A stretch of 48,761 nucleotides of DNA, taken from positions 1 through 48,761 of the IMG/VR virus record IMGVR_UViG_3300011444_000002; one strand, 5' to 3'. Under the pieces are notes generated by a model, which was not told where the DNA came from, ran no database searches, and worked only from the letters and a program-made list of their open reading frames with translations. Made by a program: the position numbers and the translations under genes. This stretch comes from a virus. Taxonomy: Duplodnaviria > Caudoviricetes. This document shows positions 5,425-47,169 of this stretch, in pieces; positions within the stretch are counted from its first letter, which is position 1, and every line of letters starts with the position of its first letter.

Positions 5425-6075
5425 GTGAAAGCTACCTATCAGGTCGACGCGATCCAGGGGAAGTTCCTGCGGGTGCTCGCGATGGGAGAGACGTTCGACA
5501 AGGCTCGCGCGATCGCAGACCGCGCGGTCGCGGACCCGGCGGTTCAGGTCCGCGTTACGGGAACGACGTCCGACGGCGACGTCCTCGTCGTCGAGGACTG
5601 GCGCGCCGCGTCCGAGCGCGCCGGCCGCGTCGGCGTCGGACACGTCCTCGCGGACGGACACGTCGCCGAGACCTGCGAGCTCTGCCTCGCGCGCCCGCGG
5701 GTCGTCGTCTCCGACGCCCTCGACGCCGGCTACCGCACGCTCCAGGACGACGTCCTGCGGAACGTCGGCCTCTTGAAGATCGCGACAAACGAGGCCGCGG
5801 CCGAGTCCTACCGCGAGCTCGCGGGCGTCTGCGCCGAGCGCGCGAAGGCCGAGCGCGACCGCCTCGGGATCGAGGCCCTCGCCGCGAACGACGCGTGCCG
5901 GGAGTATCTGGACCGGCTCCAGGACAACGCCCCCGCGATGCTCCAGTTTCTCGACGACTTCGTCGCGTGGACCGACGGCGAGGTCTCCCTCGGGAAGGCC
6001 GTCCCGTCGATCGCGTCGGCGAACGTCGAGCGGGCTCGCGCGATCCGCGACCGGATCGTCGGGGTGAAGTCGTGA
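5425..6075 (+). CDS. Hypothetical protein
   Basis: GAGGAGG RBS; 216 aa with phage-like codon usage. Confidence 0.8.
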   Translation: MKATYQVDAIQGKFLRVLAMGETFDKARAIADRAVADPAVQVRVTGTTSDGDVLVVEDWRAASERAGRVGVGHVLADGHVAETCELCLARPRVVVSDALDAGYRTLQDDVLRNVGLLKIATNEAAAESYRELAGVCAERAKAERDRLGIEALAANDACREYLDRLQDNAPAMLQFLDDFVAWTDGEVSLGKAVPSIASANVERARAIRDRIVGVKS

Positions 6076-6536
6076 AGGCCCGCCCCGACGGGGACCCCTG
6101 CGTCGTCGGCGACTGCGGGCTCCCCCGCAGCGCGCCCGAGCACGACGACGAGAGCGAGCTCTACTCGCACAGATACCGCGACGACGGCGCAGAGGACGGC
6201 CAGAGCCTCGTCGAGTTCGCGCTCGTGCTGCCGGTGTTCCTGGTCGTCGTCCTGCTCTTGTTCGACGCGGGCGGCATCCTCTGGCGGTTCAATATGACTA
6301 CCTCGATTGCGCGCCTGGTCGCGCGCGACGCCTCGATAAACGGTCCGGTCGTTGCCTCGCGGAACGGGGTCGCGCTCGCAGCTCGGCTCGGCTACAAGGG
6401 GGTCGTGACGGCGAAGTACGAACCCGGCAAGCGCGACGTGATCGTGACGGCGACGACGACGAACCGCGCGATCTTGTTCGGCCGGAACCTCCCGATCACG
6501 GCGACGACGTCGGCGCATGTCGAGATCGTTCGATGA
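6072..6536 (+). CDS. TadE-like (Flp/Tad pilus) pseudopilin
   Basis: G|QSLVEFALVLPVFLVVVLLLFDAG...ARLVARDAS matches the TadE prepilin-peptidase site, the hydrophobic helix and a degenerate AAREGAR motif. Confidence 0.8.
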   Translation: MKARPDGDPCVVGDCGLPRSAPEHDDESELYSHRYRDDGAEDGQSLVEFALVLPVFLVVVLLLFDAGGILWRFNMTTSIARLVARDASINGPVVASRNGVALAARLGYKGVVTAKYEPGKRDVIVTATTTNRAILFGRNLPITATTSAHVEIVR

Positions 6537-6904
6537 GCCGCGCGATCGAGAACCCCGAGCGGAAGTGTCTCGTCTGCGGGAAGCGTCTGGTCGGAAAGTA
6601 CCGCCAGGCGGTCGTCCGGACCTGGCACGAGCTCCCGCAGCGCGGGTGCATCCACAGGACGCTCGCCGCGAACGGTCGGATCGTCGCCTGCGATCTGCCG
6701 ATCCGGCTCGACGGGTCGATCTCGGTCTGCTCCGCGGGGCATCGCGAGGCCGCGATCCAGCGCGTCGAGCTCGGTCCGAAGGAACTCGTCGGCTACGGGC
6801 TCGACGCCCGCGGAGCCTTCCACTCCCAGAACTGCGCGACGGTGTTCGCGCACGCCGCGGCCGAAAACGGGCATCGGTACAAGTTTTTCGGGGTGAGCTC
6901 GTGA
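6533..6904 (+). CDS. Hypothetical treble-clef-like Zn protein
   Basis: KCLVCGKRL...GYGLDARGAFHSQNCATVFA; ATGA coupling. Confidence 0.75.
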   Translation: MSRAIENPERKCLVCGKRLVGKYRQAVVRTWHELPQRGCIHRTLAANGRIVACDLPIRLDGSISVCSAGHREAAIQRVELGPKELVGYGLDARGAFHSQNCATVFAHAAAENGHRYKFFGVSS

Positions 6905-7107
6905 GGCCGCGCCCGAAACGCGACTGGATCACGGTTACAGAGGCCGCGATCGAGCTCGGGTTCTCCGATACCTACGTTCGGCGTCTCGTGCGCGAGGGTC
7001 GGATCTACGCCGAGAACGCGTTCGGCGTCTACCTCGTGTACGCGCCCGCGGTCGAGGAGTTCAAGAGGACGCCCGCGCGGCCGCCAGGCCGCCAGGCCGC
7101 CGTCTAG
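6901..7107 (+). CDS. Excisionase/MerR-like helix-turn-helix DNA-binding protein
   Basis: WITVTEAAIELGFSDTYVRRLVREGRI, an HTH_17-type pattern. Confidence 0.8.
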   Translation: MRPRPKRDWITVTEAAIELGFSDTYVRRLVREGRIYAENAFGVYLVYAPAVEEFKRTPARPPGRQAAV

Positions 7108-7155
7108 GAAACGAGAACGCGGGCGTCCAGTCGACGCCCGCGTCCCCCTCGTTTC
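7108..7155. terminator. Long hairpin between the convergent arms (probable bidirectional terminator)
   Basis: ACGCGGGCGTC-cagtc-GACGCCCGCGT stem, extended by GAAACGAG/CTCGTTTC. Confidence 0.65.
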
Positions 7156-7268
7156 GTTGCAGTCAATCTCGCCCTAGCGGCGAACGATCCAGCGCATGTC
7201 GAGATCCTCCCAAGGTGTCTCCGCTGAAAGGCCCAGGCGCAAGCCGCCCGGGGGTTTCGCGACGCCGG

Positions 7269-7535
7269 CTACGCGCCGCCGATGTGATCCCGGTTGTAGC
7301 CGCTCCGCTTGCGCCGGAGCTCCAGGAACGCCCTCTGGAGGTTGGCCGCGACCATCGCGGGATTGATCCCGTCGAGCGCGCGCTCGGCCTCCGCGTGAAA
7401 CAGATTCCAGAGCTCGGCCTCGGAGAGGCCCGGGTTCGCCTTCTCGACCTCGTCGAGCTTCCCCTCTGCGTGCTCCCGGAGCCATTCGATCTGCTGCTCC
7501 AGGTCTTTGATCGTCTCCTCGATATTCGTCGGCAT
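7269..7535 (-). CDS. Small hypothetical protein, last gene of the late operon
   Basis: GAGGAG RBS before ATG 7535 (alternative start 7622); helical and acidic. Confidence 0.7.
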   Translation of the reverse strand: MPTNIEETIKDLEQQIEWLREHAEGKLDEVEKANPGLSEAELWNLFHAEAERALDGINPAMVAANLQRAFLELRRKRSGYNRDHIGGA

Positions 7536-7625
7536 GTAGAGCTCCTCGACGGGGACGCAGCCGCCCCCGGGCCCGAAGTAACAGACGACCCCGCGCACGC
7601 CGCGCGGGACATGGAAGATCATCGG

Positions 7626-8711
7626 CTAGTGGCCGCCCCAGGCCGCCCAACGCAGGCCGACCGCGTACTCCGGCTCGCGGTGGACGGCGATTCCCTGGAC
7701 GGGGTTCCCGAGCTCGTCGTACTCGATCGTCGACGTTGTCTCGTCGGGGATCCAGCGCGCCGTCCCGATCGCGAATAGCGCGGTCGAGCCGTCGCCGCGA
7801 AAGAGGACCGGCGCGGCCATGCGTAACGAGAGCTCGGAGTGCCTCGTCTGCTGGAGCCCGAGGATCTCGCGCGCCTTGTTGTTCGGCCAGACGTAGTCGG
7901 CTCCCAGGTAGAGGGAGAGAGGATGCGAGCCCGGGCCCTTGTAGGCGCGCAGGCGAGCTCCGACGAACGCCCAGGACATATCGGTCGAGAGGTCGATCTC
8001 GCCGCCGGCCGCCGTCGAGAGGGCCTCGGTCCAGGAATAGGAGAACCCGGCTCCCGGCATCGCCGCAGTAAACGTCGAGCCGTCGCCGTGCTGGAGCTGC
8101 GCGGCCTTGACGTCGACGTAGGCCCCGAGCCGCCAGAACGCGAAGATCGAGGAGTCCGGCTCCGTCACGACCTGGCCGTTCTCGGTCGTGTAGGACCTGG
8201 AGGGCTGCGCCTGCGCCGTCGAGCACCCGAGCGCGCCCAGGGCGAACACGAGAGCAAGTCCGATCATAACGATAGGTCCCATGCCGGACGGCCGGTTGAC
8301 GTCCGCGCCAGGAGCCATCGGCGCGACGTAGACGCCGGCCTTCGCCGCGACCATCGGGTCGACCTTGCCCAGGTAGGCGCGCAGATCGTCGACGGTTGCC
8401 GGCGGCCGGCCCGAGCCGTAGATCCCGCGCGCCAGGAAGTGAACGGCGACCGTCTCGACCCAGAGGACGAACACTTGGAGCGGAACGTCGGTCAGGATGC
8501 CGTGAGGCTCGGTCGGGTCGACGTAGTGAAGGACCCGCGAGACGACGAGCCAGGAGAAAAGGCCCGCGAGCGTTCCGAGGATCGGGTCCGCGTACTTCGG
8601 GAGCTCGCCCTCGACCGCACCCGTCCAGTAGTTCTTTATGACCTGGCACGCCGCGGCGATCAGCGCGGCGAATGGCAGGAGCGTAACGTTCAGTAGATCC
8701 TTGAACTCCAC
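7626..8711 (-). CDS. Putative holin fused to an internal signal peptide and an outer-membrane beta-barrel-like domain
   Basis: GGAGG RBS before GTG 8711; 361 aa. Three N-terminal hydrophobic segments with an A118-holin-like pattern, then IVMIGLALVFALGALGCSTAQA|Q, then about eight alternating amphipathic strands ending EYAVGLRWAAW. Confidence 0.6.
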   Translation of the reverse strand: MEFKDLLNVTLLPFAALIAAACQVIKNYWTGAVEGELPKYADPILGTLAGLFSWLVVSRVLHYVDPTEPHGILTDVPLQVFVLWVETVAVHFLARGIYGSGRPPATVDDLRAYLGKVDPMVAAKAGVYVAPMAPGADVNRPSGMGPIVMIGLALVFALGALGCSTAQAQPSRSYTTENGQVVTEPDSSIFAFWRLGAYVDVKAAQLQHGDGSTFTAAMPGAGFSYSWTEALSTAAGGEIDLSTDMSWAFVGARLRAYKGPGSHPLSLYLGADYVWPNNKAREILGLQQTRHSELSLRMAAPVLFRGDGSTALFAIGTARWIPDETTSTIEYDELGNPVQGIAVHREPEYAVGLRWAAWGGH

Positions 8712-8722
8712 TTGGGAACCTC

Positions 8723-9352
8723 CTACGGTTGGCCGCCCGCGAGAACGCCGGGACGGTAGGTTTCCGGCACGAGCCGGCCGAACGTCGCGAGCGAATCGTC
8801 GCGCGTCCAATTGTTCGCGCGCACGATGAGCCATGCGCGGAACTCGACGACGCTATCAGTCGCCGCAGTAACGACCGCGAATCCTCGTTTGAGGTACACG
8901 GTCGAGTCGTCGTCGACGCCGAACGCGAGAGACATTCGCGCGTCCTGGAACCCGACGTATCCCAGAGAGTCGCCGACCGCCGGAGCTCCGGAGATCATCC
9001 CCGCATAGTTGACCGAGAGCGTCCGCTTGGACTTGCGGTTCCAGTCGCCGTAGGTCGGGATCGGTGGGGACCAGAACCCGTAGGCGACTCCCGTAAGGTC
9101 GAACCGCCCGCTCGGCCAGAGCCACGCCCGCGGGAACGGCGCGCTCGACCCGGTGTCGGGGTTCGCGGAGATCGGCCGGCCTGGCGTCGTGTCGAACGGG
9201 TCGAGCAGCGGGGGAGCGTAGAGCGTGAGCGTCGCCGGGAGCGGGTCCGAGCCCGCGGCCTTCGCGCAGGGCCCGAGCATCGAGACGACGACGACCAGGG
9301 CGAGCAGGAGCGCGCCCGAGACGAACGCGAGATAGCGGTCGTGTTCTGACAT
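8723..9352 (-). CDS. Exported beta-rich hypothetical protein
   Basis: N-terminal signal peptide RYLAFVSGALLLALVVVVSMLGPCAKA; RBS AGGAG. Confidence 0.75.
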   Translation of the reverse strand: MSEHDRYLAFVSGALLLALVVVVSMLGPCAKAAGSDPLPATLTLYAPPLLDPFDTTPGRPISANPDTGSSAPFPRAWLWPSGRFDLTGVAYGFWSPPIPTYGDWNRKSKRTLSVNYAGMISGAPAVGDSLGYVGFQDARMSLAFGVDDDSTVYLKRGFAVVTAATDSVVEFRAWLIVRANNWTRDDSLATFGRLVPETYRPGVLAGGQP

Positions 9353-9356
9353 GGGA

Positions 9357-9812
9357 CTATCTCCTGGCGGCCTTGGGGACCGCGGTTTTCACCGAGTCGA
9401 CGGTCGCGGCGACGGTGTCGACGACCGCGGCGACGGTGTCAATCTTCGCCTCGACGACCTTCACGCTCGCGACGACGGCCGCCGTCTGGACGGTGCGCGC
9501 GCGCGACGCCCGCAGCTCCAGGCGGTCGATCCGCTCGATAACGGTCTGGACTCCGGACGCGATCGCGATCGTGTTCCGCTCGCCGCGTTCGAGGGCCTCC
9601 TGCGCCAGGCTTACGCCGCGCCGGATCGAGTCGGAGACCGCGGCCTGCTCGTGCTGGAGGTCGGCCTGCTTCTGCTGCTCGGATCGGCCGGCGGTGAGCT
9701 CGCGCCCGACCCAGGCGATCGCGACGAAAATCGTAAACAGGAACGAGAGGTAGACGAGCCTCCAGCTCGGCGCGAGGGCCTTCGTCGTCTGGGGTCCGGT
9801 GTCATGTTCCAT
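9357..9812 (-). CDS. Single-TM coiled-coil protein (i-spanin/Rz-like candidate)
   Basis: GGGGAGG RBS. TM LVYLSFLFTIFVAIAWVG followed by a long heptad helix (KIDTVAAVVDTVAATVDSVK). Confidence 0.6.
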   Translation of the reverse strand: MEHDTGPQTTKALAPSWRLVYLSFLFTIFVAIAWVGRELTAGRSEQQKQADLQHEQAAVSDSIRRGVSLAQEALERGERNTIAIASGVQTVIERIDRLELRASRARTVQTAAVVASVKVVEAKIDTVAAVVDTVAATVDSVKTAVPKAARR

Positions 9813-10125
9813 TCGGCCGCCTCCCCTGGATCGCCGCGAGCTCGCGGTCGTGTCGGTCGAGCTTGTGTCTTTCGACGGGTCCGTCCAGGGTATGCCGTCG
9901 ATCGTTGTCCGCATGGTCGTCTAGCTCCCCCTCGATCGAGGACATTCGGTTCTCGTGCGCCTCGCGCAGCTCCTTGAGGACTTTCTCGAACTGCTGCTGC
10001 CGGACGTAGGTTGTAACCGCCAGGGAAACGTTCGTAACCGCCCAGATCACGAGCGGCCAGGTAATCGGGGGGAGCTGTGACCAGGGAATCCCCTCTGCGA
10101 GCGGGACGACGACTGCGAGCGTCAA
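9802..10125 (-). CDS. Single-TM coiled-coil membrane protein
   Basis: TTG start overlapping the upstream TGA, with GAAGGAG RBS. TM ITWPLVIWAVTNVSLAVTTYV followed by a charged coiled coil. Confidence 0.65.
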   Translation of the reverse strand: MTLAVVVPLAEGIPWSQLPPITWPLVIWAVTNVSLAVTTYVRQQQFEKVLKELREAHENRMSSIEGELDDHADNDRRHTLDGPVERHKLDRHDRELAAIQGRRPNGT

Positions 10126-10661
10126 GGGACGAGCTCCTTCGGTGTCGAGGTTTCGAGCTCCAGCTCCAGGAACCGAGACGTCGCGCTCGCACGAGAACCC
10201 GTCGTCCGAATGGAGAATACACGTCCCGAGATCTCGTCGGTCCCCTCGACGTAGAGCCACTCCAGAAATCCCTCGTCGTCGACGGTGTACGTCGCGCTCG
10301 CCAGGTGATCGACGAGCAGCTCGCGGTCCGACGTCGACGGGCCCTCCGGCAAATGCACGGCGACGAGCGTCGCGAACGTGTCGCGGATCGCGACCGCCTG
10401 CTCGTCGGGGACCAGGTAGAGAACGCGAGCCGGGACGCGGAGCGTCGAACCGTTCCATTCCCGAACGCCCGCGGCCGCCAGGAGGAGCCCGGAGCCCGGG
10501 AGCTGGTCGTTCGCCTGGAGCTCCAGGGAGACGAACCTCGGGGAGAGCTCCCGAGGCCACTCCCAGACGAGCAGGCCGGCGGCCAGGGCGAGGAACGAGA
10601 GGGACGAGAGTCCGAGCAGCCAGGGCGCACAGACCCGCGCAGACGGGACCCTGGGCCTCAC
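10122..10661 (-). CDS. Membrane-anchored hypothetical protein
   Basis: GTGA coupling to the endolysin. TM WLLGLSSLSFLALAAGLLVWEW followed by a soluble domain. Confidence 0.65.
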   Translation of the reverse strand: MRPRVPSARVCAPWLLGLSSLSFLALAAGLLVWEWPRELSPRFVSLELQANDQLPGSGLLLAAAGVREWNGSTLRVPARVLYLVPDEQAVAIRDTFATLVAVHLPEGPSTSDRELLVDHLASATYTVDDEGFLEWLYVEGTDEISGRVFSIRTTGSRASATSRFLELELETSTPKELVP

Positions 10662-11179
10662 AGAGGGAACTCCCAGGCCCCAGGGTGAGCGATCGCCCAG
10701 GCGCGCGCCTCGTCGAGCGTCCGCGCCGGGTGGTATTCCAGGTGCGGCCGGTCCTTCCTGGTCGGCCAATCGCCGCCCCAGAGGAACCCGAGCTCCTCGG
10801 CCGCCTGCTCGATCTCGTCCCAATGGTCTGCGGGGTCGGTCGGCGTGTAGTCCCAATCGGCCGCCGCGGCGCGGTAGAGCGGGACGAAATCCAGGGCGAG
10901 CCCGTAGTAGTGCCAGGAGTCGCGCGCCGTCTGGGCGTTCGTGATCGTCGAGAGGTTCTCGGCCGCGGTCGGGGGCGTGAGGCCCTGGGCCCGGTAGAGT
11001 GTCGCAACGTCGGCTAGCGGTCGACGCCCGCGGCTCCAGTAGGCCCTCTGGAGAGCGTCGTCGCGCCTGGTCTCGGTGATCAGGACGAGCCATCCCTTAG
11101 CCGCGCAACGCCTGAGCCACTCGCCGACGAGGCCCTGGAACTTCGGGTGAAGATCTCGAACGTCTCGCCGGACCGGCAT
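10658..11179 (-). CDS. Endolysin, M15 family (L-Ala-D-Glu type) peptidase
   Basis: DLHP...ITETRR...Q...SRGR...ITNA...SWHYYGLALD...WGGDW...DRPHLE, the SxHxxGxAxD and DxxH motifs. Confidence 0.93.
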   Translation of the reverse strand: MPVRRDVRDLHPKFQGLVGEWLRRCAAKGWLVLITETRRDDALQRAYWSRGRRPLADVATLYRAQGLTPPTAAENLSTITNAQTARDSWHYYGLALDFVPLYRAAAADWDYTPTDPADHWDEIEQAAEELGFLWGGDWPTRKDRPHLEYHPARTLDEARAWAIAHPGAWEFPL

Positions 11180-11188
11180 CGCGGCCTC

Positions 11189-14100
11189 CTAGTAAACGTG
11201 CGGATTGACCGCGCGGAGCGTGACCTTGGAGCGGCCGTTAATCGGGTCGAGCGTGAACGAGCGGATCGTCGCCGCGACCGCGCGCGCGGTGTCCGGCACG
11301 ACCGGAGCTCCTGCGGGGTCGCCCTGGGGGTTGAGCGTCAGCGTCCACTTGAGCTGGCGGGGCTCCTCGACCAGGTAGCAGTCGCCCAGGTGCGGAACGA
11401 ACGTCAGCGGGAAATCGACGTCGAGCATGTAGCGCGCCTGGTCGTTCTGCTGGACGACGCGCCGCGCGAGCTCGCGGGCCCGAGCGTAGTTCAGGAACGG
11501 CGAGCGGCGCGCCGGCCGGAAGATCGAGACCCCGTATTTCTCGATCGACTCGCGCGCCGTCGCGATCTGCTTCGTGAGCTCCTGCGGATCGAGAGACAGA
11601 CCCTCGCAGTCGATCTGGATCTCGTCGCCGACCATGAAAGGGCACTCGGGGTAATCGTAGGGCTCGCCCTGATTGTTGAGCGTGCGGGACTTCGGGACCT
11701 CGAATACCATCCCGACGCCCGTCGGCCCGACCCAGAAAACCGTCCCCTCGTTGTATTCCTCGACGTTCTGGACCGGCGCGACGTAGCCGCGGATCGGGCG
11801 AAACCGTTTGATATCGTCCGCGTCTCCCCCGGAGCCGACGCGCCGGCCGGCCCAGGTCGTCCCGTCGATCACGTTCACGACCAGGAGGTCGGGGTCGCCG
11901 GCCTCGGAGTCGTCGACGTGCGGGCGAGCGATCATCCCCTTTACCAGGTTACGCGTCGAGATCGCCTGGAACTCGGTCTCGGTCTCCTCGGATCCAGGGA
12001 CGACGGTTCCCGACGGGTCCGCGGTGCGCGCGACGCCCAGAGGCCCGTCCGACCAGACGTTGTTCTCCCAGGAACGCAGGACGACGCGAGTCCCGATCGG
12101 ATACGGGAGGTCCGAGGGAGCGTGGTCGACGAGGATTACCGAGCGGTCGTTCGCCTCGTCGTGCGTAATGTCGCGAACCTTCCCGACGTAGGCCCCGATC
12201 TCGACCGAGTCGCCGTAGAGCTCGCCGTCGGCCGTCGAGAGTGAGGACTCCTCGTCGGTCCCGCGGGTCGTGTCGAGAGCTGCGATATACGGGACGACGA
12301 TCTCAAGTCCCGCGGTCGGGTCGTCGACGACGTCGTCTAGCGTCGTGATCCAGACCTCGTACTGTCCGCTCGTGGTATTGAACCGCGTATAGAGCCGCCA
12401 GAAGTCGAACCCGACGATCAGGCCGTCGCCCGCGTCGGAGTCCGAGCCGACGTTCGCGAGGCCCGTAACCGTGAGGTCGTCCCAGGAGGAGCCGTCGTCG
12501 GTCCCGCGGAAAAACCGGAACGTCCCGGTCGAGTCGAACGCGCCCGCGTAGAGGTTCCCGTTCTCGTCGACGTCGAACGCGTAGTCGTGATTCCGCGACC
12601 ATCCCGCGACCGCCGCGAGCGGGGTCGGCGCGAACGCCCCCGACCAGGACGCGCCGTCGTCGTCGGAGTAGGAGAGGTAGAAGTCGCCGCCGTCGACCCA
12701 GGCCGCCCAGGTCCGGCCGGCGGTCGTGCGCCTGACAGCGGTCGGCCGGTATTGATTCGTCCCGGTGTAGTCGGCCAGGAGGACCGTCGAGCTCGCTCCC
12801 CAGGCGTTTGACGTCACGAGGGCTCGGACCTGGTCGTGCTGATTCGCCGCGTTCGAGTAGTCCTGGACGATTACCGCGACGTTCGCGTCGACGATGTAGC
12901 CGATACGGTAGGACGGGCCCGCGCGGAACCCGAACCAGGGCGAGCTCCCCGAGGCCGAGTCGTGAATCTTCGTCTGGGAGCCGTAGGTCCCGGCTCCGGT
13001 GCGCCGCATTTGGTACACGTCGTCGAGCGTCCCGCCGCCGCCGCGTTCCTGCGTAATGAGGTCGACGATCGTCGAGGCTCCGACGACGTCGACCAGGAAC
13101 CCGGCGAACCCGCGCGTCCCGCCCGCGTCGGGCGTCGTCTCCGACCAGGTCGCGCCCGCGTCGGTCGACTCGGCGACCTGGACCGAGAACGAGCCGTAGC
13201 CGCAGAGCAGCGTCCCGTCGTCGAGGAGCTCCAGGCCGACGACGTCGAACGTGTTCGTCGCCTCTGCGTGAACGACGACCGGGCCCGTCACGAGCGCGCG
13301 CGTCGCCGCATCGTAGGACGCGAAAAGGATCTCTTTGTTCGAGCTGAAACTGGAGCCCGAGGTCGCGCGGCCGGCCCAGGCGACGTGGACGAGCCCGCGC
13401 GGGACGTCGGAGACGAACGCGGCCGCGTGGAGCCCGTTGTTAAAGTTCTTCGCGTCGACGCGGAACTGGTGCGGGGTCGGAGCTCCAGGAGCTCCCGCCG
13501 GCTCCCAGGGTTCGAGGAGCTGCGTCTCGATTACCGAGTCGGTCGAGAGCCACGCGAACCGGAGTTTCGATCGCCGCTCGCCGCCGCCAGGAGCCGTCAG
13601 GACGACGACGTTCCCGTAGCGGTCGTGCGCGATGCACCCGTCGTCCTCTGCTCCGACGACGCCGCCCTCGACGCATTTCAGGATTACTTTCTGGCGATCG
13701 AGCGACCTCTGGACGACCGAGATCGCGCCGTTCCAGGGATCGCGCGTCCAGCCGACGGGACGGGCGAGGAGCTGGACCGTCCCCTTCGGCTCGACCAGGA
13801 TCGCGCGCGAGGGAGCGACCTCTGCGTAGTTGAATACCTCGTCGTAGCCCCAATCTTTCGTAATGTCCGAGGCCGCGAGCTCGCCCGAGAGCACGTTCGG
13901 CGTCGCCTTGATCGTTCCGAGGACCGTCGTCGGCGACTCGCGCAGCTTGAAAAAGAACGCGCCGTCCGCATCGTAGCCGAACACAAAGTCGGCGATCGCC
14001 GCGAGCGCGGAGAGCGCGTCCCAGACCGTCATTTCCGAGAAGTCGGCGAGCTCGATCCGGTCGGTCATTGTGAACCCGAGCTGGTAGAGATAGCCTTTCC

Positions 14101-16291
14101 CGTTCTGCGGAATGATCTGGACGTCGGGGTCCTGCTCGGTCCCGGTGCCGGCCCCCGAAATCCCGAAGATCGCGCCGTCGCCGCCGTTGTGTTCTTTCGA
14201 GAGCACGAGGCCCGCGGCGAGGCCGGTGTCGCCGTCGACCGGCGGGAACCCGTCGTCGACCGTCACGATCGAGCCCGTCCCGTCGTCCGGCATCCTGATT
14301 AGGGAGTTCGCGCCCGCGTCCTGCCAGAACATAGCCCCGGGTCCGGTGATCCCGCCCGAGTCCCAATGCACGAGCCCCGACTGCCGGCCGGTGCTCCAGC
14401 GCGCGACGCCCGTCGTCCCGCCGCCGCCGAGATCGAGCATCGCCGCGCCCCAACAAGCCCCCCCGACCTTGGTGTAGTCGAGGAACGTAATCCCGGCATG
14501 TCCCGAGGCCGCGTACTTCGCCTCCAGGACGATCCAGCGACGCCGGCCTCGGGAGTCGCCGACCGCGAAGTTCGTCGAGAGGAAGTCGAGCGTCTGCGCC
14601 GGCTGGCCGGTGAACGCGCCCGCCGCTAGCGGCCAGGTGAACTCGACGACGATCGAGCCGACCGGCTTGTTGTTCCCGACGTCGTCCGGCGCGCCGCCCG
14701 ACCAGGCCGACTCGTCGAAATAGGTCGCCGCGACGAGCAGCTTGTTCCCGGCTGCGTTGAACTCCATCGAGGTCGGGAGGTAATACTCGTTCCCTGACAT
14801 AACGTAATAGCCGGGGTCCGAGACCGCGCCGCTCTGGATATTGCGGACGATGATCTTCGCTTTGTAGCGGTCGAGGCCCGCGTCCCAGGAAATCGTCGTG
14901 AGCGCGAGCTCGTCGGTCGCCTCGTTAAACGCGAACGCGCCCGCGTATTGCCCGTAGTTGAAACGGTGATCCGAGGGGTATCGCGGCGAGACCGACGTGT
15001 CGTCGAAATGATTGTGATAGGGCCCAATCTCGGTCATCCAGTAATCCGGAGACGTGTTATTGAGCATGGCCGACTCGAACGCGCCCGGGGCGTCGTCGTT
15101 CCAGGCGTCGTGCGCGTAGAGCGACCGCCCGGTCCCGACCGACGGCTGGCGCGCGCGCAGCCAATGGGGAGTCACGTTCGGGATATTGATTCCCGCCTGG
15201 TCGGCGTCGGCGTTAAACGGGTGCCCGCCGATAACGACGTGGAACGGCGACGCGGCCAGCTTGCGCCCGGCGCGGACATGGAAAAGCCCGGTGTAGAAGT
15301 TCGTCGAGAAGATCGAGAACTCGGTCGCCGCGGCCGGCGCGGCCGTCATGCTCGCCGTAAGCTGGACGACGTTGTCGTAAGTCACGAGGTCGACGTTCCC
15401 GGCCAGGCGAGCTGCGACGTCGGCCGTCGGGAACTCGGGCGTCCAGGCGAGGAGGACGATTTTCTGGCGCAGCGTCGAGACGTAAACGTGGTGAATCTTC
15501 GCGCCCGCGGCGATCAGAGCTGCCGGGAGTTTCGTCCAGTAGGTCCAGACGCCCGTCTCCGGGTTGAACTTCCAGAGCTCCTCCTCCAGGCCGACCCAGA
15601 TCTCGCCGTAGCCTGCGTCGGCGGGATTGTTGTTCACGGCGAGCGGCGACCCGTAAATCGTGTAGTCGCGCGCGGTCTCCGGCGGCCGCGCGAACGACGA
15701 GATAACCGGACCGTCCTCGCGCGTCGCGTCGGAGATCGGGATCTGGTAGGAGTCCTCGATCTCGGAGAACGCGGCGACCTCTGCGACGGTGTGACGCGTT
15801 TCGAGGAGCCGCCGCACGAGGAACCCCGTCGGCATGTTGACCCACCATTGTTTCCCGCGGCGCACGCGGTCGGCCTGGGCGTCGACGAGCAGGGACGTCA
15901 GGGTCCGGAGCGTGATCGTCGCCTGCGGGAGGTTCGCGCGCGTCGTGATCCGGTCGAGGACCCAGACGCCGAGACGCTCGGTCCCGCCGAGAGTCACGAG
16001 GGAGATCCGGCAGCGGAGCCGCTTCCAGGTTTTCGCGACGAACGTCGACGGCGGGGGCGAGTCCCAGAATCGGTCGTCGTTCCGGACGGTCAGGGTCGAG
16101 AGCTGGACGTCGAACGCGCCGGTCTCTTTCTCCTGGCGCGCCGTCAGGCCCGACCCGACGTTCACGAGCCGTTCCTGCGTGAACCGATCCGAGAGGTCGA
16201 TCCAGGAGCCGTTCGTGTCGCGGACCTCGAATAGAACGCGGACTGGCCGTCTACGCTGCGCGAGCGCGTCGTTTACCGTCCCGTAAGTCAT
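11189..16291 (-). CDS. Large tail tip/host-recognition protein with a BNR (Asp-box) beta-propeller
   Basis: 1700 aa, downstream of the tape measure and distal tail genes. Asp-boxes STDAGATW, SDDDGASW, TDDGSSW. Hub-like segments TVWDALSALAAIADFVFGYDADGAFFF and ARESIEKYGV. Confidence 0.8.
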   Translation of the reverse strand: MTYGTVNDALAQRRRPVRVLFEVRDTNGSWIDLSDRFTQERLVNVGSGLTARQEKETGAFDVQLSTLTVRNDDRFWDSPPPSTFVAKTWKRLRCRISLVTLGGTERLGVWVLDRITTRANLPQATITLRTLTSLLVDAQADRVRRGKQWWVNMPTGFLVRRLLETRHTVAEVAAFSEIEDSYQIPISDATREDGPVISSFARPPETARDYTIYGSPLAVNNNPADAGYGEIWVGLEEELWKFNPETGVWTYWTKLPAALIAAGAKIHHVYVSTLRQKIVLLAWTPEFPTADVAARLAGNVDLVTYDNVVQLTASMTAAPAAATEFSIFSTNFYTGLFHVRAGRKLAASPFHVVIGGHPFNADADQAGINIPNVTPHWLRARQPSVGTGRSLYAHDAWNDDAPGAFESAMLNNTSPDYWMTEIGPYHNHFDDTSVSPRYPSDHRFNYGQYAGAFAFNEATDELALTTISWDAGLDRYKAKIIVRNIQSGAVSDPGYYVMSGNEYYLPTSMEFNAAGNKLLVAATYFDESAWSGGAPDDVGNNKPVGSIVVEFTWPLAAGAFTGQPAQTLDFLSTNFAVGDSRGRRRWIVLEAKYAASGHAGITFLDYTKVGGACWGAAMLDLGGGGTTGVARWSTGRQSGLVHWDSGGITGPGAMFWQDAGANSLIRMPDDGTGSIVTVDDGFPPVDGDTGLAAGLVLSKEHNGGDGAIFGISGAGTGTEQDPDVQIIPQNGKGYLYQLGFTMTDRIELADFSEMTVWDALSALAAIADFVFGYDADGAFFFKLRESPTTVLGTIKATPNVLSGELAASDITKDWGYDEVFNYAEVAPSRAILVEPKGTVQLLARPVGWTRDPWNGAISVVQRSLDRQKVILKCVEGGVVGAEDDGCIAHDRYGNVVVLTAPGGGERRSKLRFAWLSTDSVIETQLLEPWEPAGAPGAPTPHQFRVDAKNFNNGLHAAAFVSDVPRGLVHVAWAGRATSGSSFSSNKEILFASYDAATRALVTGPVVVHAEATNTFDVVGLELLDDGTLLCGYGSFSVQVAESTDAGATWSETTPDAGGTRGFAGFLVDVVGASTIVDLITQERGGGGTLDDVYQMRRTGAGTYGSQTKIHDSASGSSPWFGFRAGPSYRIGYIVDANVAVIVQDYSNAANQHDQVRALVTSNAWGASSTVLLADYTGTNQYRPTAVRRTTAGRTWAAWVDGGDFYLSYSDDDGASWSGAFAPTPLAAVAGWSRNHDYAFDVDENGNLYAGAFDSTGTFRFFRGTDDGSSWDDLTVTGLANVGSDSDAGDGLIVGFDFWRLYTRFNTTSGQYEVWITTLDDVVDDPTAGLEIVVPYIAALDTTRGTDEESSLSTADGELYGDSVEIGAYVGKVRDITHDEANDRSVILVDHAPSDLPYPIGTRVVLRSWENNVWSDGPLGVARTADPSGTVVPGSEETETEFQAISTRNLVKGMIARPHVDDSEAGDPDLLVVNVIDGTTWAGRRVGSGGDADDIKRFRPIRGYVAPVQNVEEYNEGTVFWVGPTGVGMVFEVPKSRTLNNQGEPYDYPECPFMVGDEIQIDCEGLSLDPQELTKQIATARESIEKYGVSIFRPARRSPFLNYARARELARRVVQQNDQARYMLDVDFPLTFVPHLGDCYLVEEPRQLKWTLTLNPQGDPAGAPVVPDTARAVAATIRSFTLDPINGRSKVTLRAVNPHVY

Positions 16292-23752: not shown

Positions 23753-24456
23753 GGTCGGCTCCCAAAGAGATAGGCCCGGAGCGGGGTTCTCCAGTTGCGC
23801 TGGAGGAACGCCGCGCCGGCCTGCGTGTTCGGGTCGACCGGCGGGAGGAACGGCCGCGCGGGGTAGCCGGGGTGCTGGACCGAGAGCGCGTAGACGGTGA
23901 CGGCTCCCGGCCGCCCGGGAATCTGGCCGCGCCCGGTTGCACGACGCCGCGCCAGGGCGCGCGACCTCCGCTCGCGGAACGCGGCCAGGCCCTCGCGCCC
24001 GGTGAGCGTGCGACCGCCTTCTCGAACTCCGGCGACCTGGAACCGCAGCGGATAGTTTCCATGCGGCGCGATCGTCCAGGGACCTTTCCGGCCCTCCTGG
24101 TGGAACCGCCCGATCGCCGACGTCTTAACCGTGATCCCGATCTCGGAGCCGACCTCGGAGACGGTGATCGAGGTCGCGGCCTCGATGCCCGAGCGGCCGC
24201 GGCCGCCGTGGAGGACCTTGGAGTGTCCTTTCGCGGCGACGGTGTTAAGCCGGTTCGGGACCCATTGGGGATTCCCGCCGACGGCGAACTGCGTCCGGAC
24301 GTGCTGCCGCATCGCGGCCGCCAGTTGCGCGACGACGGGTCCCGGGTTCCGCATCCCGGCCCCGAAGCGTGCAAGCGTCTCGCGCGCCGCCGCCGCCTCG
24401 ACCTCGGTCGAGACCGGCGCGACGTAGAACGCCCGAACGTTGTAGGAGAGAGGCAT
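23749..24456 (-). CDS. Neck/tail completion protein (Mu gpG-like virion morphogenesis)
   Basis: TAATG coupling; QFAVGGNPQW...FHQEG...HPGYPARPFL. Confidence 0.75.
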   Translation of the reverse strand: MPLSYNVRAFYVAPVSTEVEAAAARETLARFGAGMRNPGPVVAQLAAAMRQHVRTQFAVGGNPQWVPNRLNTVAAKGHSKVLHGGRGRSGIEAATSITVSEVGSEIGITVKTSAIGRFHQEGRKGPWTIAPHGNYPLRFQVAGVREGGRTLTGREGLAAFRERRSRALARRRATGRGQIPGRPGAVTVYALSVQHPGYPARPFLPPVDPNTQAGAAFLQRNWRTPLRAYLFGSRP

Positions 24457-25223
24457 TACCGCCGGCTCCGAACCGAGAGCGACGGGATCGCCGTCGGCAT
24501 GATGTAGGACTGGTGTTTCGAGCCGACCGTGCGCGCGACGCCGCCGACGGTCTCGACGACGACCGGGACCGTCGGGATCACGATCTCGCCGGCCAGGATC
24601 GCGTCCAGCCACTTGTCGACCCACGCGTGGAGGTCGACCGCATGGAGTCCGCGGTTCCCGTTCTCGCCGTAGTAGCGGTCGAGCAGGAGCGCGGCCGCCT
24701 TCCAGTCGTTCATTAGGACGAGGATCGGGTCGAACGGCGCGACGAATGGGACGGTGTAGATCCCGCCGAGCCGGCCATTGATGTAGTCGGCTCCGCGGGT
24801 CGCCTCCAGCGCGACCGCCGACGAGTCGAGCGTCGGGTCGGAGAGGGCCTTGTCGACGGCGCGGATCCGCTCCTCGGTCGTGTAGCTCGTCCCGACCGTG
24901 CCGGTCGTCGCGAACGCGGCCGACGGCACGAGCTGGAGCGTATCGACCGAGCTCGTCGGCTTGCCGCTCGTGACGCCCGTCCAGCGGACGACGTACTGGC
25001 CGCTCGGCCAGGAGTTGAGGTCGGAGACGTCGAGGTCGGCGAGCATGAAACCCGTAAGGCCCAGGGCCTCGACGGGCGTCAGCGTCGCGAGAACCGCGAC
25101 CGGGTTCCCGCCCATGATCTTGATCTGCGGCGACGTCGGCGTCGCCGGCTGCGCGTCGTCGTCGAGGTACTGCGACGCGATCACGATCGGCGCGGCCTGG
25201 CCGACTGCTCCCTGGAAGATCAT
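24456..25223 (-). CDS. Head-tail adaptor (Mu gp36-like) with an N-terminal Ig-like extension
   Basis: SYTTEERIR...ADYINGRLGGIYTVPF...KWLDAILAGEI, preceded by ~105 aa of beta-rich sequence. Confidence 0.7.
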   Translation of the reverse strand: MIFQGAVGQAAPIVIASQYLDDDAQPATPTSPQIKIMGGNPVAVLATLTPVEALGLTGFMLADLDVSDLNSWPSGQYVVRWTGVTSGKPTSSVDTLQLVPSAAFATTGTVGTSYTTEERIRAVDKALSDPTLDSSAVALEATRGADYINGRLGGIYTVPFVAPFDPILVLMNDWKAAALLLDRYYGENGNRGLHAVDLHAWVDKWLDAILAGEIVIPTVPVVVETVGGVARTVGSKHQSYIMPTAIPSLSVRSRR

Positions 25224-25227
25224 CGGA

Positions 25228-25353
25228 CTATCTCCTCGTTTTCAGGCGACGCCGCTTGAGCGTCGCGCCTTCTGCGATCCGCGGCCGCTTGAGCGCGGGA
25301 GCGGGACCGATCGGGATCGTGAACTCCCAGAGGGAGCGGAGCGCGAGGAGCAC
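25228..25353 (-). CDS. Small basic protein (41 aa, absent from the ORF track)
   Basis: GTG...TAG ORF fills the gap: MLLALRSLWEFTIPIGPAPALKRPRIAEGATLKRRRLKTRR. Confidence 0.5.
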   Translation of the reverse strand: MLLALRSLWEFTIPIGPAPALKRPRIAEGATLKRRRLKTRR

Positions 25354-25354
25354 G

Positions 25355-26059
25355 CTAGAACCCCATCCCCGAGAGGCACGCCTGCGGGTGTAGCAGCTCG
25401 CCGCGGAACTCGGCGCACGCGAGCGCGTAGGGCTTCGCCGTCGCGCCCCAGGTAAACCCCGGAGTCACGCTCGCGCCGCCCGGCTGCGGGCCGTATGCGC
25501 TGGAGTAGCGCACGCGAGCTGGCGACGACCCCTGGGAGCTCGTCGCCTGCTGTCCCATGCTCGTTCCAGTCGCCGCGCTAACTGCGGGGACGGTCGTCCC
25601 GAAAAATACCGAGAGCCCCTCGAAGATCGCCGACGTCGTGAGATCCGGGCTCGTGAGCGTCTTGCTTGCGCTCGTCGCGGTGCCGATCCCGCCGTCGACC
25701 GCGCCGCCGAGCGCGCCGGGCTCGATCCCTTCGATTTCGTAGACCGACGTTCGGGTGATACACGTCGAGGCCGCCGTCGGAGTCACGACGACGCTATGCG
25801 TCCCCTTGGGCGGGAACTCGAACTTATAGATCCCGACGTCGGCCGTCCCGGCCTGGTACTTCACGATCGTAGCCGCGACGCCGCCGACGGTTACGCTCGC
25901 GATCGAGTTGTCGATCCCGAGGGTGTCCTCGTTGTGGACGACGATGATATGGCAGCGGCGAGCGGTGTCCGGCCAGCTCGGAGTTACGGAAACCGTGGTC
26001 GCCGCGCCGGTTCCATTCCCGTTCGTAAGTGCCGCCAGGACGACCAGGTCGCGCGCCAT
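25355..26059 (-). CDS. Putative virion surface protein (beta-sandwich)
   Basis: Thr/Ser/Gly/Ala-rich; IASVTVGGVAAT; located in the head-neck region. Confidence 0.65.
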   Translation of the reverse strand: MARDLVVLAALTNGNGTGAATTVSVTPSWPDTARRCHIIVVHNEDTLGIDNSIASVTVGGVAATIVKYQAGTADVGIYKFEFPPKGTHSVVVTPTAASTCITRTSVYEIEGIEPGALGGAVDGGIGTATSASKTLTSPDLTTSAIFEGLSVFFGTTVPAVSAATGTSMGQQATSSQGSSPARVRYSSAYGPQPGGASVTPGFTWGATAKPYALACAEFRGELLHPQACLSGMGF

Positions 26060-26062
26060 CCC

Positions 26063-27388
26063 CTAGACCTCTGCGTATTCCAGGAACCCGCTCGCCTGCG
26101 TGATCGTCGCGAGCGCGGCCGAGAGCTTGTTCCCCGACGTGGTCTCGACCCATCCTCCCGCGGCGAACGGGAGAACGAATCCCGAGCCCGCGCGCAGAGT
26201 CCAGGCCGCGCCGATAACGGTCGTGTTATCGCGCCAGGACCAGGTCCCGTCGACGTTCACGTTCAGGACCGCGGCGAGGACGCGGATCTTTTTCGACGTG
26301 ACGGCCGCGACGAGGTCTCCGGTCGCCGCGAGATTGATCGTCGCGCGTTTGATCTCGCAGGCGACGCCGTCGACGACGATGTATTTCCCGTCCTGGGACG
26401 CGCAGACGGTGTCGGCCGTGCGCGAGCTCGCCGGCATGGTCGCGACGTCGACGTCGCCGATGTTGTTGTTTCCCGCCGGGATCGCCGCGGCCAGGGAGAC
26501 CGAGCCGTCGACCGTGACCGAGCCGCCGCCGTCCTGGACGGTGACGGCCGCGGCGACCGAAACCGGGACCGTCCCCTGGACGCCGACCGGCAGCGGCTTG
26601 GCCGCCGAGACGGCGCGGAGCGTGTCGCCCGCGTCCTCCCAGAGGACCGCTCCCCCGGTGATCGACGCGTCGACGTCGCCCTCGGTGTATTGCGTCGAGC
26701 TCCCGCCGCCGCCCGAGACGACGTCGACCTTCAGGCCGCCGCCGCCGCCCAGGGCTGCCGGGAGCTGCGCCGAGTCGACGGTCAGGCTCCCGCCGCCGTC
26801 CTGGACCGTGACGGGGGCGGCCAGGGAGACCGGCTGCGTATCGGTCGGAGTCGTGGGCTTGTAGAACGCCGCGCCGTCGGAGAGCCGCGTCGAGCTCGGG
26901 GTCGCAGCGGCCGTGTGCTCGGCTGCCGGAGCCGCCGGGACCTTCGCGTTCAGGGCTGCGAGCGTCGTCTGCGTCGCCGCGTCCGCGGGGAGTGGAAGGG
27001 TCGCAGCGGAGACGGGGACGGCCGTCGCGCCGGCAACGCCTTCCACCTTGAGCCCGCCGCCGGGAGCTCCGAGAGCCGCCGGAAGTCGCGCGAGGAGAGC
27101 CGCCAGGTCGACCAGGAGGGCTGCGAGCGTAACCTCGGTCGCAGCTCCGGCGGGGAGCGGGAGAGCTGCGGCCGAGACCGGCTGCGTCCCCGAGGGAATG
27201 TTCCGGACGACGAGACCGGGGTCCGCGCCGCCTGGAGCTGCGGTCGCGATCTTCGCGGGATCGGAGTCGGTCCCGTCGCCGACGCCGATAATCTGCTGCT
27301 CGATCTCGGTCCCCGCGCGGTCGAACGAGCGGGTGTCGATTCGAGCTCCGGCCCCGTCGGGGGCGACCTGGACGAAATCCTTTGCCAT
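26063..27388 (-). CDS. Putative head fibre/decoration protein with internal repeats
   Basis: Duplicated PVSAAxLPLPAxAATxxTLAAL, LPAALGxxGGLKV and VTVQDGGGSxTVD. Confidence 0.65.
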   Translation of the reverse strand: MAKDFVQVAPDGAGARIDTRSFDRAGTEIEQQIIGVGDGTDSDPAKIATAAPGGADPGLVVRNIPSGTQPVSAAALPLPAGAATEVTLAALLVDLAALLARLPAALGAPGGGLKVEGVAGATAVPVSAATLPLPADAATQTTLAALNAKVPAAPAAEHTAAATPSSTRLSDGAAFYKPTTPTDTQPVSLAAPVTVQDGGGSLTVDSAQLPAALGGGGGLKVDVVSGGGGSSTQYTEGDVDASITGGAVLWEDAGDTLRAVSAAKPLPVGVQGTVPVSVAAAVTVQDGGGSVTVDGSVSLAAAIPAGNNNIGDVDVATMPASSRTADTVCASQDGKYIVVDGVACEIKRATINLAATGDLVAAVTSKKIRVLAAVLNVNVDGTWSWRDNTTVIGAAWTLRAGSGFVLPFAAGGWVETTSGNKLSAALATITQASGFLEYAEV

Positions 27389-40104: not shown

Positions 40105-41310
40105 TTACCGCCCTGCGTTCGTAATGCGGGTGATATAGCGGCCGGCCGTGTCCCGCGTCTGACAGACCAGGCCGTCCCCGGGTTGCACGACGAGCTTCGT
40201 CGTCGACGTCAGGTAGTACGCGTGCGGGGTCGTCCCCATATTCAGAACGACGAACCCGCGTTTGAAGTTGCGCGCCCAGACGCCGCCGCCTCGGTTCCGC
40301 AGAGCCCCCGCGGTCGCGCCCAGGTCGAGCTCGAAGTGCTCGGGGTCCCGGTAGCTTTCTTTCGTCCCGCCGCCGTAGTCGCCGCGCAGATCGGACCAGT
40401 TGAACCGCGATCCGGTCAGGAGAGAGAGGCTCGCGAACGCCCGACGCTTGAGCGGGACGAGCTCCTCGACGCCGACGAACGCGATTTTATCGGGGTGCGC
40501 CGTGACGTTCTTCCAGACCTTCCCCAGAGGGTTGAGGGACATTCCCGCTTGTTCGTAGCGGATCCCGTCGGAGACCGGGACGAGGTCCTCGGGATATTGG
40601 TCGCATTGGATGATCGAGAGGCCGCCGGCCCGGGTCGCCTGGATCAGGCGACGGAACCCGGCGCGCCAGGCCGGCCAGATCGCCGGGTCGACTCCGAGGT
40701 TCGCCCAGGACACGTCGCCGCAGCCGTAGTCCCAGAGCACGCCCGCGGACCGGCCGCGGAACTTGTCGAGGATGAGCTGCGCGTAGGCGTCGACGAACGC
40801 CGAGTCGCGATAGTCGATCATCGTCGACCCGTAGACGCCCGGCCAGAGGACCGCCGGAGTCCCGTCGACCTTTTTCAGGATCGCGTTGTAGCGCGTGACC
40901 AGGTCGAGCGCGGCTGTATCCCAGGGGAAGTCGGGCCCGGAGACCGGGACCCCGTTCGTCGTCGCGATCGCCGGCTGGAGCCATACCAGGGCGTGCGCGC
41001 CGATCAGAGAGAGAGAGTCTGCGACCGACTGGATCAGGATCGCGCGGGGGGAGACCGCGACGTACTCGTAACCGGAGAGCGGTCCGACGACCGGGCGATT
41101 CTTGTAGTTCCAGAGGAACGTTCCCGTCCGCGGGGAAGCGTTCGACGCGATCGAGAACAACGCCCCGAGCAGAACCCCGAGCACGAGCACGAGGAGGAGC
41201 TGGAGCGCGGCGCGGGTGCGCCCTCTACGTTTCCTGCGAGCGGTGAGCTCGCGGAGCTCGTCGAGGTTCGTCGACGCGTGGAGCTGCACAGAGACCCGAT
41301 CGTCGGCCAT
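40105..41310 (-). CDS. Membrane-anchored/exported putative glycoside hydrolase (GHL15-like TIM barrel)
   Basis: Basic stretch plus hydrophobic helix. MIDYRDSAF...GVLWD...DGIRYEQ and C-terminal LDLGA...GGVWARNFKRGFVVLN. Confidence 0.65.
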   Translation of the reverse strand: MADDRVSVQLHASTNLDELRELTARRKRRGRTRAALQLLLVLVLGVLLGALFSIASNASPRTGTFLWNYKNRPVVGPLSGYEYVAVSPRAILIQSVADSLSLIGAHALVWLQPAIATTNGVPVSGPDFPWDTAALDLVTRYNAILKKVDGTPAVLWPGVYGSTMIDYRDSAFVDAYAQLILDKFRGRSAGVLWDYGCGDVSWANLGVDPAIWPAWRAGFRRLIQATRAGGLSIIQCDQYPEDLVPVSDGIRYEQAGMSLNPLGKVWKNVTAHPDKIAFVGVEELVPLKRRAFASLSLLTGSRFNWSDLRGDYGGGTKESYRDPEHFELDLGATAGALRNRGGGVWARNFKRGFVVLNMGTTPHAYYLTSTTKLVVQPGDGLVCQTRDTAGRYITRITNAGR

Positions 41311-47046: not shown

Positions 47047-47169
47047 CTAATCCCCCTGCTGCGGAAAGTCGAAATCGTCGTTCGCGCCGGCCTGGCGTAC
47101 CAGGTCTCGCGTGCGGACGTCCTTGATCTTCGCGCTTTCGGCGACGGCGATAACTTCGGCGTTTGCCAC
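47047..47169 (-). CDS. 40-aa peptide directly upstream of and in frame with the subtilase
   Basis: GGAGG RBS, GTG start: MANAEVIAVAESAKIKDVRTRDLVRQAGANDDFDFPQQGD. Its TAG abuts the protease ATG. Confidence 0.55.
   Translation of the reverse strand: MANAEVIAVAESAKIKDVRTRDLVRQAGANDDFDFPQQGD

Follow-up and report, generated by a model that had tools for sequence, protein, structure and literature searches.

The stretch of DNA analysed here, called the window, is a whole virus record of 48.8 kb with direct terminal repeats (100% complete according to CheckV) and a G+C content of 68%. The sole sequencing run containing its sequence is recorded as a freshwater sediment metagenome, and no RNA run is listed. 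On the minus strand, genes for portal, Mu-F-like, terminase-like and tail-tube proteins lead up to a tail protein of 1,700 aa, after which come an M15 endolysin, four small proteins of membrane or exported type, a fusion gene and an 88-aa gene (Table 1). The tail protein (11189-16291, minus strand) gave weak BNR-repeat and Ig-like matches and is probably a receptor-binding protein. No sigma-70 promoter was found within 6800-11400, and no tyrosine integrase in the window genome. The hairpin in Table 1 is a possible terminator; the terminator scan did not call it.

Table 1. Features of the window around the fusion gene, including the predicted segments of its product.
Feature	Position	Strand	Basis
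Fusion gene P0001, 361 aa: holin-like domain, internal signal peptide and predicted 8-stranded barrel	7626..8711	-	
AGGAGG ribosome-binding site; overlaps the TAG with which the upstream gene ends	8719..8724	-	
Residues 1-100: three predicted transmembrane helices, predicted N-out/C-in	8412..8711	-	hydropathy, positive-inside counts, models
Residues 101-146: linker, predicted to be cytoplasmic, that has six Lys/Arg and the amphipathic helix 107-124; n-region of the internal signal	8274..8411	-	
Residues 147-168: h- and c-region of the internal signal; predicted signal peptidase I cut after AQA168	8208..8273	-	site picked by eye, conservation
Residues 169-361: predicted mature protein with periplasmic beta-hairpin 171-185, 8-stranded transmembrane barrel ~193-358 and conserved Gly-Gly end	7629..8207	-	
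Endolysin, peptidase M15 family, no signal segment seen	10658..11179	-	Pfam PF13539, E 2.9e-15; PHROG endolysin, E 6.8e-21
~179-aa protein, one hydrophobic segment, start codon uncertain, no family found	10122..10661	-	
107-aa protein, one weak hydrophobic segment followed by a charged helical tail	9802..10125	-	
151-aa predicted type II membrane protein with long helical tail, anatomy like an i-spanin (Rz)	9357..9812	-	
209-aa predicted exported protein, signal ending L-G-P-C	8723..9352	-	
88-aa soluble protein, directly 3' of the fusion	7269..7535	-	
Perfect 11-bp hairpin where the late operon meets the oncoming genes	7117..7143		

The fusion gene reads from a GTG start at 8711 down to 7626 on the minus strand without an internal stop, and the plus strand over the same positions is interrupted by stops. 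The ribosome-binding site has a pairing energy of -11.1, compared with a median of -7.1 for 27 real starts, which confirms the uninterrupted 361-aa frame with a 5' ribosome-binding site described in an earlier note on this DNA. The same note had seen no obvious site before the internal Met144, and here, too, the analysis agrees: the pairing energies of Met144 (-1.7) and Met149 (-3.6) lie at the background, which has a median of -2.95 over 194 internal ATG/GTG codons. The overlap of the ribosome-binding site with the preceding stop codon suggests that the fusion is translationally coupled to the upstream gene. GC3 stays between 0.80 and 1.0 throughout the gene, with no break at the junction of the holin and barrel parts. 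Continuity over 8200-8420, for which the earlier note had proposed a check of the reads, is seen in a Logan contig that covers 7000-11500 in one piece with 0 differences and that may itself be the source of the window DNA. Homologues that keep the fusion, also sought by that note, were found in the form of six proteins beyond P0001, which independently excludes an assembly artefact; together with the even codon bias they rule out a read-through of two genes as well. The fusion is real and conserved, and it is built from known parts.

Family and predicted domains of the fusion

The first homology search returned four proteins, the query P0001 and three full-length relatives, P0002-P0004, which align along 99-100% of the length at 51, 47 and 40% identity. 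A profile of these four gave 20 matches among 1.84 billion representatives: five fusions (P0002, P0004, P0005, P0006 and P0015), one protein of 101 aa with the holin part only (P0007, which may be partial), 13 proteins with the barrel only, and one false match, the selectin-like animal protein P0012, which was dropped. Both halves are thus found alone, and five further stand-alone barrels came from additional searches; the seven fusions considered below are P0001-P0006 and P0015. No new gene context emerged from the viral contigs searched with P0001, P0002 and the alignments A1, A3 and A4, or from the GTDB genomes searched with A1 and A3. The metagenome search returned only the window's own record, the short-protein search with the holin alignment only P0007, the GenBank phages no match for P0001 or P0007, and the PDB, by sequence, a single chance match. 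Gene context was read in two genomes, that is for two of the seven fusions (P0001 in the window and P0005 in the phage G001), and in no case for a stand-alone barrel. Each of the 15 stand-alone barrels listed begins with Met (or Val), carries one or two Lys/Arg within the first six residues and continues with a hydrophobic core. The internal hydrophobic segment of the fusions aligns with these N-terminal signals, so that the fused gene reads as two once-adjacent genes whose signal peptide was kept.

P0001 has hydrophobic segments at residues 7-25, 43-61 and 76-94 and a fourth at 147-165, and AlphaFold2 places helices at 9-30, 41-61, 72-98 and 144-160. In five fusions the three loops contain 2-3, 0-1 and 6-7 Lys plus Arg, respectively, with the helix limits set from hydropathy; this charge bias places the linker in the cytoplasm, which is the orientation required by a Sec signal. 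The linker had been described as a Pro/Ala stretch, a description that has to be corrected, as it comprises about 46 residues and its amphipathic helix is conserved. In class I holins there are three transmembrane helices in the N-out/C-in orientation (PMC9636201), and the N-terminus of P0001 is predicted to have this topology. It resembles the class I holins of the lambda S105 type and of Listeria phage A118 also in its length of about 100 residues, its basic cytoplasmic tail and its position in a lysis region with a signal-less endolysin; it differs from them in having neither a family match nor a dual-Met start, and in that the tail continues into a signal peptide and a predicted barrel.

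The earlier note had recognised an A118-type holin with three hydrophobic segments. The three segments stand, whereas the assignment to A118 fails every sequence test: PF06946 and PF16079 gave no match at E <= 10 in the window genome, hhalign of the N-terminus with Hol118 gave a probability of 0.9%, and no ATG, GTG or TTG lies between codons 1 and 80 of the fusion gene that could correspond to the dual start (hol-96/hol-93) of the A118 record. The A118 relatives found were nearly all near-copies, so they gave no deep profile. Comparison with holin families was likewise negative. The N-terminus of the window protein matched no holin in Pfam, PHROGs or NCBIfam, its best PHROG match being a family of unassigned function (E 3.6e-4), and none of six N-terminal sequences of the fusion family matched the A118 profiles. 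In the ESM Atlas it groups with viral proteins of 100-120 aa without family (score 0.92); a holin_5 lead had a score of 0.85, with 11-27% holin_5 members in the clusters and a TM of 0.46. A BFVD fold search with residues 1-125, whose model has a pLDDT of 62, gave no match at E <= 0.001.

The strongest evidence for a holin comes from a relative. The N-terminus of P0005 is an unrelated two-helix domain that matches the holin family PHROG 9752 (E 3.4e-9) and is the only match to that family in G001; its matches to annotated actinophage holins are weak (best E 9e-3). In an unrooted tree of 23 mature barrels, which leaves out P0007, P0012, P0023 and P0024, P0005 is the sister of P0004 (98/96) within a P0001-P0005 clade (97/90). 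As P0005 is nested among these barrels, one membrane module has replaced another, with the barrel staying fused. The reverse is seen in P0006, which has the holin part of the window at 51% identity and a distant barrel, on a long branch elsewhere in the tree. A single clade of fused barrels was rejected with a p-AU of 0.028, a weak result given three long branches and the unsettled status of P0009. The M15 endolysin lies four genes upstream of the fusion in the same run of genes and, lacking an export signal of its own, would need a holin. Because of the predicted topology, the gene context and the replacement by a recognised holin, the N-terminal part is probably a holin that releases the cytoplasmic endolysin.

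The residues at -3 and -1 of the predicted cleavage site are small in all seven fusions (six A-x-A and one V-x-A, the sites having been picked by eye), and the supposed lipobox cysteine is found in three of them. Of the signal-like stretch with an AxA site and a weak lipobox reported earlier, the AxA-type site is thus a trait of the family; an internal lipoprotein was rejected as such a trait, and neither Met144 nor the cysteine of the LGC motif is conserved among the relatives. From the cleavage site to the conserved Arg in strand 1, the fusions have 9-25 residues, a length that is not conserved. Since a spacer of as few as nine residues cannot span the periplasm, the simplest explanation is that signal peptidase I cleaves the protein. 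It is highly probable that the enzyme cuts after AQA168, freeing a 193-aa protein that would fold into the outer membrane and leaving the signal helix on the holin. The earlier note had left a choice between a cleaved polyprotein and an uncut tether; the former is retained and the latter disfavoured by the nine-residue spacer of one fusion. Outer-membrane proteins pass through the periplasm, and a barrel on a tether could not get through an intact wall to be assembled. A cellular parallel is FbcH of Bradyrhizobium (cytochrome b-c1), reportedly a polyprotein that is split at an internal signal peptide and in which, likewise, a polytopic inner-membrane domain is followed by an internal signal and an exported part freed by signal peptidase. 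The part freed from P0001 would instead be an outer-membrane barrel, and in a phage.

The C-terminal domain is predicted to be an 8-stranded barrel of the outer-membrane type. The AlphaFold2 model, based on an alignment of 26 sequences, has a mean pLDDT of 75.6 and a pTM of 0.54; taken in blocks of ten residues, the pLDDT is 88-97 across most of residues 191-350. The VIA search ranked a designed transmembrane barrel first (6x9z; Z 13.2, rmsd 2.4, 116 residues aligned), followed by OprF (Z 12.3, rmsd 3.2, 124 aligned), a designed soluble barrel (Z 12.0), NspA (Z 11.9, rmsd 3.5, 146 aligned) and PagL (11.8), and the identity to these top five was 10-17%. OmpW, NspA and OmpA head the Foldseek list, in which Ail takes ranks 16-23 amid many 8-strand barrels; BFVD gave 25 matches at E <= 0.001, including phage outer-membrane proteins, and the ESM Atlas gave outer-membrane clusters (score 0.96). 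The eight alternating strands noticed earlier are upheld by an alignment of 23 sequences, from which P0007 and two near-copies were left out: in eight of eight strands the alternation is strict, with a mean hydropathy of 1.4-2.6 on one face and of -1.7 to 0.4 on the other. The structural comparison proposed at that time thus pointed to an outer-membrane barrel. A soluble sandwich or a lipocalin-type barrel was rejected by the fold ranking together with the alternation, soluble designed barrels nevertheless scoring Z 10-12. Because of the predicted barrel, the host was presumably a diderm.

The N-domains of OmpA and OprF as well as OmpW, NspA and OmpX/Ail have the same predicted fold and the same lipid-facing alternation. 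The barrel of P0001 differs from them in its lack of a Pfam match, in ending with Gly-Gly-x instead of an aromatic residue, and in its export from an internal signal behind a membrane domain instead of an N-terminal signal. An aromatic last residue occurs in one of the 23 sequences (P0020), and Gly-Gly just past the last strand in 22. For the barrels of P0001-P0004, no Pfam or PHROG family was found and no sequence match to the Ail/Lom families; the closest barrel family match among all relatives, that of P0011 to PF13505, has an E of 0.016 and fails the cut-off. Both the length and the sequence of the extracellular loops are highly variable. Phage-encoded barrels as such are known from lambda Lom, which is also 8-stranded, and from huge phages, for which 1,603 barrels have been reported (bioRxiv 10.64898/2026.10.24.761521).

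Gene neighbourhood in two phages

P0005 is encoded by G001, a phage of 43.7 kb that has in common with the window the endolysin (49% identity), a subtilase, a 401-aa exported protein and the 88-aa gene. Its fusion cassette consists of a membrane coiled-coil gene, an exported gene with a G-P-C signal, the fusion and the 88-aa gene, in this order; portal and protease genes flank it, and the tail genes are elsewhere. The endolysin is found behind the last of the tail genes, at a distance of about 22 kb from the cassette and with no membrane gene adjoining it. From this layout, the barrel keeps together with the holin and the coiled-coil gene rather than with the endolysin or the genes of the tail. 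The 88-aa gene lies directly 3' of the fusion in both phages (L002 10904-11173 in G001), with 48% identity and a basic C-terminal motif kept, and is constant although the holin parts differ; no family was found for it, and a context search with it returned G001 only.

The coiled-coil gene of G001 has weak matches to two Rz-like spanin PHROGs (E 0.009 and 0.012), and its 151-aa counterpart in the window a weak match to the holin PHROG 9316 (E 0.007). The Rz-like matches are weak, and any membrane coiled coil would be expected to give them. In a six-frame lipobox scan of the window and G001, no canonical N-terminal lipoprotein was found in either cassette; G001 encodes a canonical lipoprotein of 163 aa (L004 3343-3834, plus strand; PHROG 14789) opposite the terminase, far from the lysis genes. 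The 209-aa gene of the window and its counterpart in G001 (L002 9230-9982, signal V-G-P-C) have only the signal region in common, which ends in G-P-C-A, and the bodies are unrelated. These genes may encode non-canonical lipoproteins. Deviant lipoboxes do exist (PMC6139136), and the G-P-C gene, which in both phages comes directly behind the Rz-like gene, could encode an o-spanin whose lipobox is unusual; the barrel would then have no spanin task.

Proposed role at lysis and alternatives

The following route is proposed. One gene of the lysis region would give a precursor of a likely holin and a predicted 8-stranded outer-membrane barrel. Its three helices would insert N-out/C-in and leave the linker in the cytoplasm, whereby the fourth segment would be oriented as a Sec signal. 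After the cut by the host signal peptidase I, the 193-aa barrel would reach the outer membrane, and the holin would retain the signal helix as its fourth segment. The holin would release the cytoplasmic M15 endolysin, and the barrel would serve as the outer-membrane partner at lysis in place of a lipoprotein o-spanin, either by anchoring the Rz-like coiled-coil neighbour in the outer membrane or by otherwise aiding the breach once the wall is gone. The fusion would fix the timing and a 1:1 supply. Because both readable cassettes contain an Rz-like neighbour and no canonical lipoprotein, the barrel would most likely be the outer-membrane lysis partner; that it anchors this neighbour or helps to breach the outer membrane is suggested with a confidence slightly short of even. 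The chain as a whole, a cleaved holin-barrel precursor whose barrel acts as outer-membrane partner at lysis, is put forward tentatively.

Known spanins grip the outer membrane by a lipoprotein, and the main text of Kongari et al., who found no spanin in 91 of 677 genomes, does not contain the word "barrel" (PMC6139136). As with Rz/Rz1 and the unimolecular spanin gp11 of phage T1 (PMC6139136), products of the lysis region would reach both membranes in the window phage, and P0001 has an Rz-like neighbour. The order of gp11 is opposite, with the lipid anchor first and the helix last, and it is not cut in two. P0001 begins with a three-helix domain instead of an N-terminal lipoprotein signal, its internal cysteine being present in three of seven fusions, and ends in a predicted barrel instead of a C-terminal transmembrane helix or a periplasm-spanning domain, with a short spacer in between. 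A third type of spanin system, in which an integral beta-barrel cut off the tail of the holin forms the outer-membrane half, one gene arms both membranes at 1:1 and the signal helix retained by the holin may also set the time of lysis, is a speculative and rather doubtful extension of the proposal. No description of a holin-barrel fusion was found in the literature as covered by titles and the beginnings of abstracts, with subscription journals outside this coverage, and the arrangement is apparently undescribed in print.

Among the alternatives, the one to be taken most seriously, though unlikely, accepts the cleaved polyprotein and sees in the barrel a late receptor blocker of the Lom kind that keeps progeny off debris and shuts out other phages, the holin fusion merely lending its late timing and a membrane-targeting route. 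The 8-stranded Lom of lambda is reported to bind LamB and to block superinfection (as cited in bioRxiv 10.64898/2026.10.24.761521), and exclusion proteins are said to keep progeny off the remnants of lysed cells (PMC13164509). The high variability of the extracellular loops and the presence of an integrase in G001 would fit such a function. However, the missing sequence match to Ail/Lom argues against it, and a blocker set free only along with the holin would be too late to protect the infection itself. Moreover, the Cor exclusion cassette is described as lying directly downstream of tail-fibre genes (PMC13164509), whereas the barrel of G001 lies away from the tail genes.

It is somewhat less probable still that the N-terminus is not a lytic holin at all and that the gene is an accessory module which modifies the envelope with one inner- and one outer-membrane protein, lysis being left to the neighbouring single-helix proteins. 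This would account for the missing holin family match in the window and for the 22 kb between cassette and endolysin in G001. The 151-aa neighbour, with its weak holin match, would be a rival holin candidate, and the subtilase, the 401-aa exported protein and the TadE-like gene of both phages would be other accessories of the envelope type. Against this stand the replacement of the domain by a recognised holin in P0005, and a size and predicted topology that fit class I holins.

Very improbable is a third view, according to which translation from an internal start, as in a separate gene, supplies most of the barrel and the fused frame arose incidentally when a stop codon was lost. A Met lies upstream of the signal in P0002, P0004 and P0006, which are three of the five fusions with a long linker, and the one in P0006 precedes Arg and the hydrophobic core as an ordinary signal start does; that each half exists alone would also be consistent with this. 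In the two genomes for which DNA is available, however, the internal starts are at background, the best values of -5.4 and -5.9 being matched by 16% and 12% of background codons, and Met144 and Met149 have no Lys/Arg before the core, in contrast to the stand-alone barrels. An internal start would, besides, still leave the holin made only as a fusion. The least probable reading, and only marginally behind the internal start, is an uncut protein that clamps the inner to the outer membrane as a one-piece, barrel-anchored spanin, since the seven single chains with both membrane domains and the gp11 precedent are opposed by the conserved -3/-1 site, the short spacer of variable length, the ordinary signal at the same place in stand-alone barrels and the wall that a tethered barrel would have to cross.

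Implications and other genes common to both phages

For the open question of how the outer membrane is crossed by phages that lack recognisable spanins, the fusion gene offers a concrete, clonable candidate. A barrel spanin, if true, would explain some of the spanin-less phages of diderm hosts. The swaps of both halves among the relatives indicate that the pairing of holin and barrel is kept while its parts change. Screens for phage outer-membrane proteins overlook such precursors when they require the signal peptide to be N-terminal. Should the barrel do no more than mask receptors, a holin serving at the same time as leader for an outer-membrane protein would still be an undescribed use of signal peptidase.

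Further observations concern the two genomes as a whole. The head and tail genes of the window and G001 differ (Mu-like and lambda-like portal, respectively). In G001, different strands encode the portal and capsid genes and the lysis genes are found at two separate places, which indicates a rearranged or mosaic genome, or an effect of assembly. Two repeat-bearing genes of the head region are common to both phages (window 25355-27388, minus strand; G001 ~24180-26325), with 35-77% identity over pieces despite the different capsid modules. The 401-aa protein (window 40105-41310, minus strand; L006 3039-4172; 51% identical) has a single segment of the membrane or signal type, belongs to no family in Pfam or NCBIfam, and resembles an exported enzyme. 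Both phages also have a TadE-like gene (pseudopilin, E 2.3e-9; window ~6073-6536, plus strand; L002 17048-17647), which could interfere with host pili. The subtilase, a protein of 765 aa (Pfam S8, E 2e-31) with a short ORF upstream, is 61% identical between the phages (window 44749-47169, minus strand; L002 11927-14371); no signal peptide was seen in it, and its C-terminus may resemble FlgD-type domains of candidate phyla of the FCB group.
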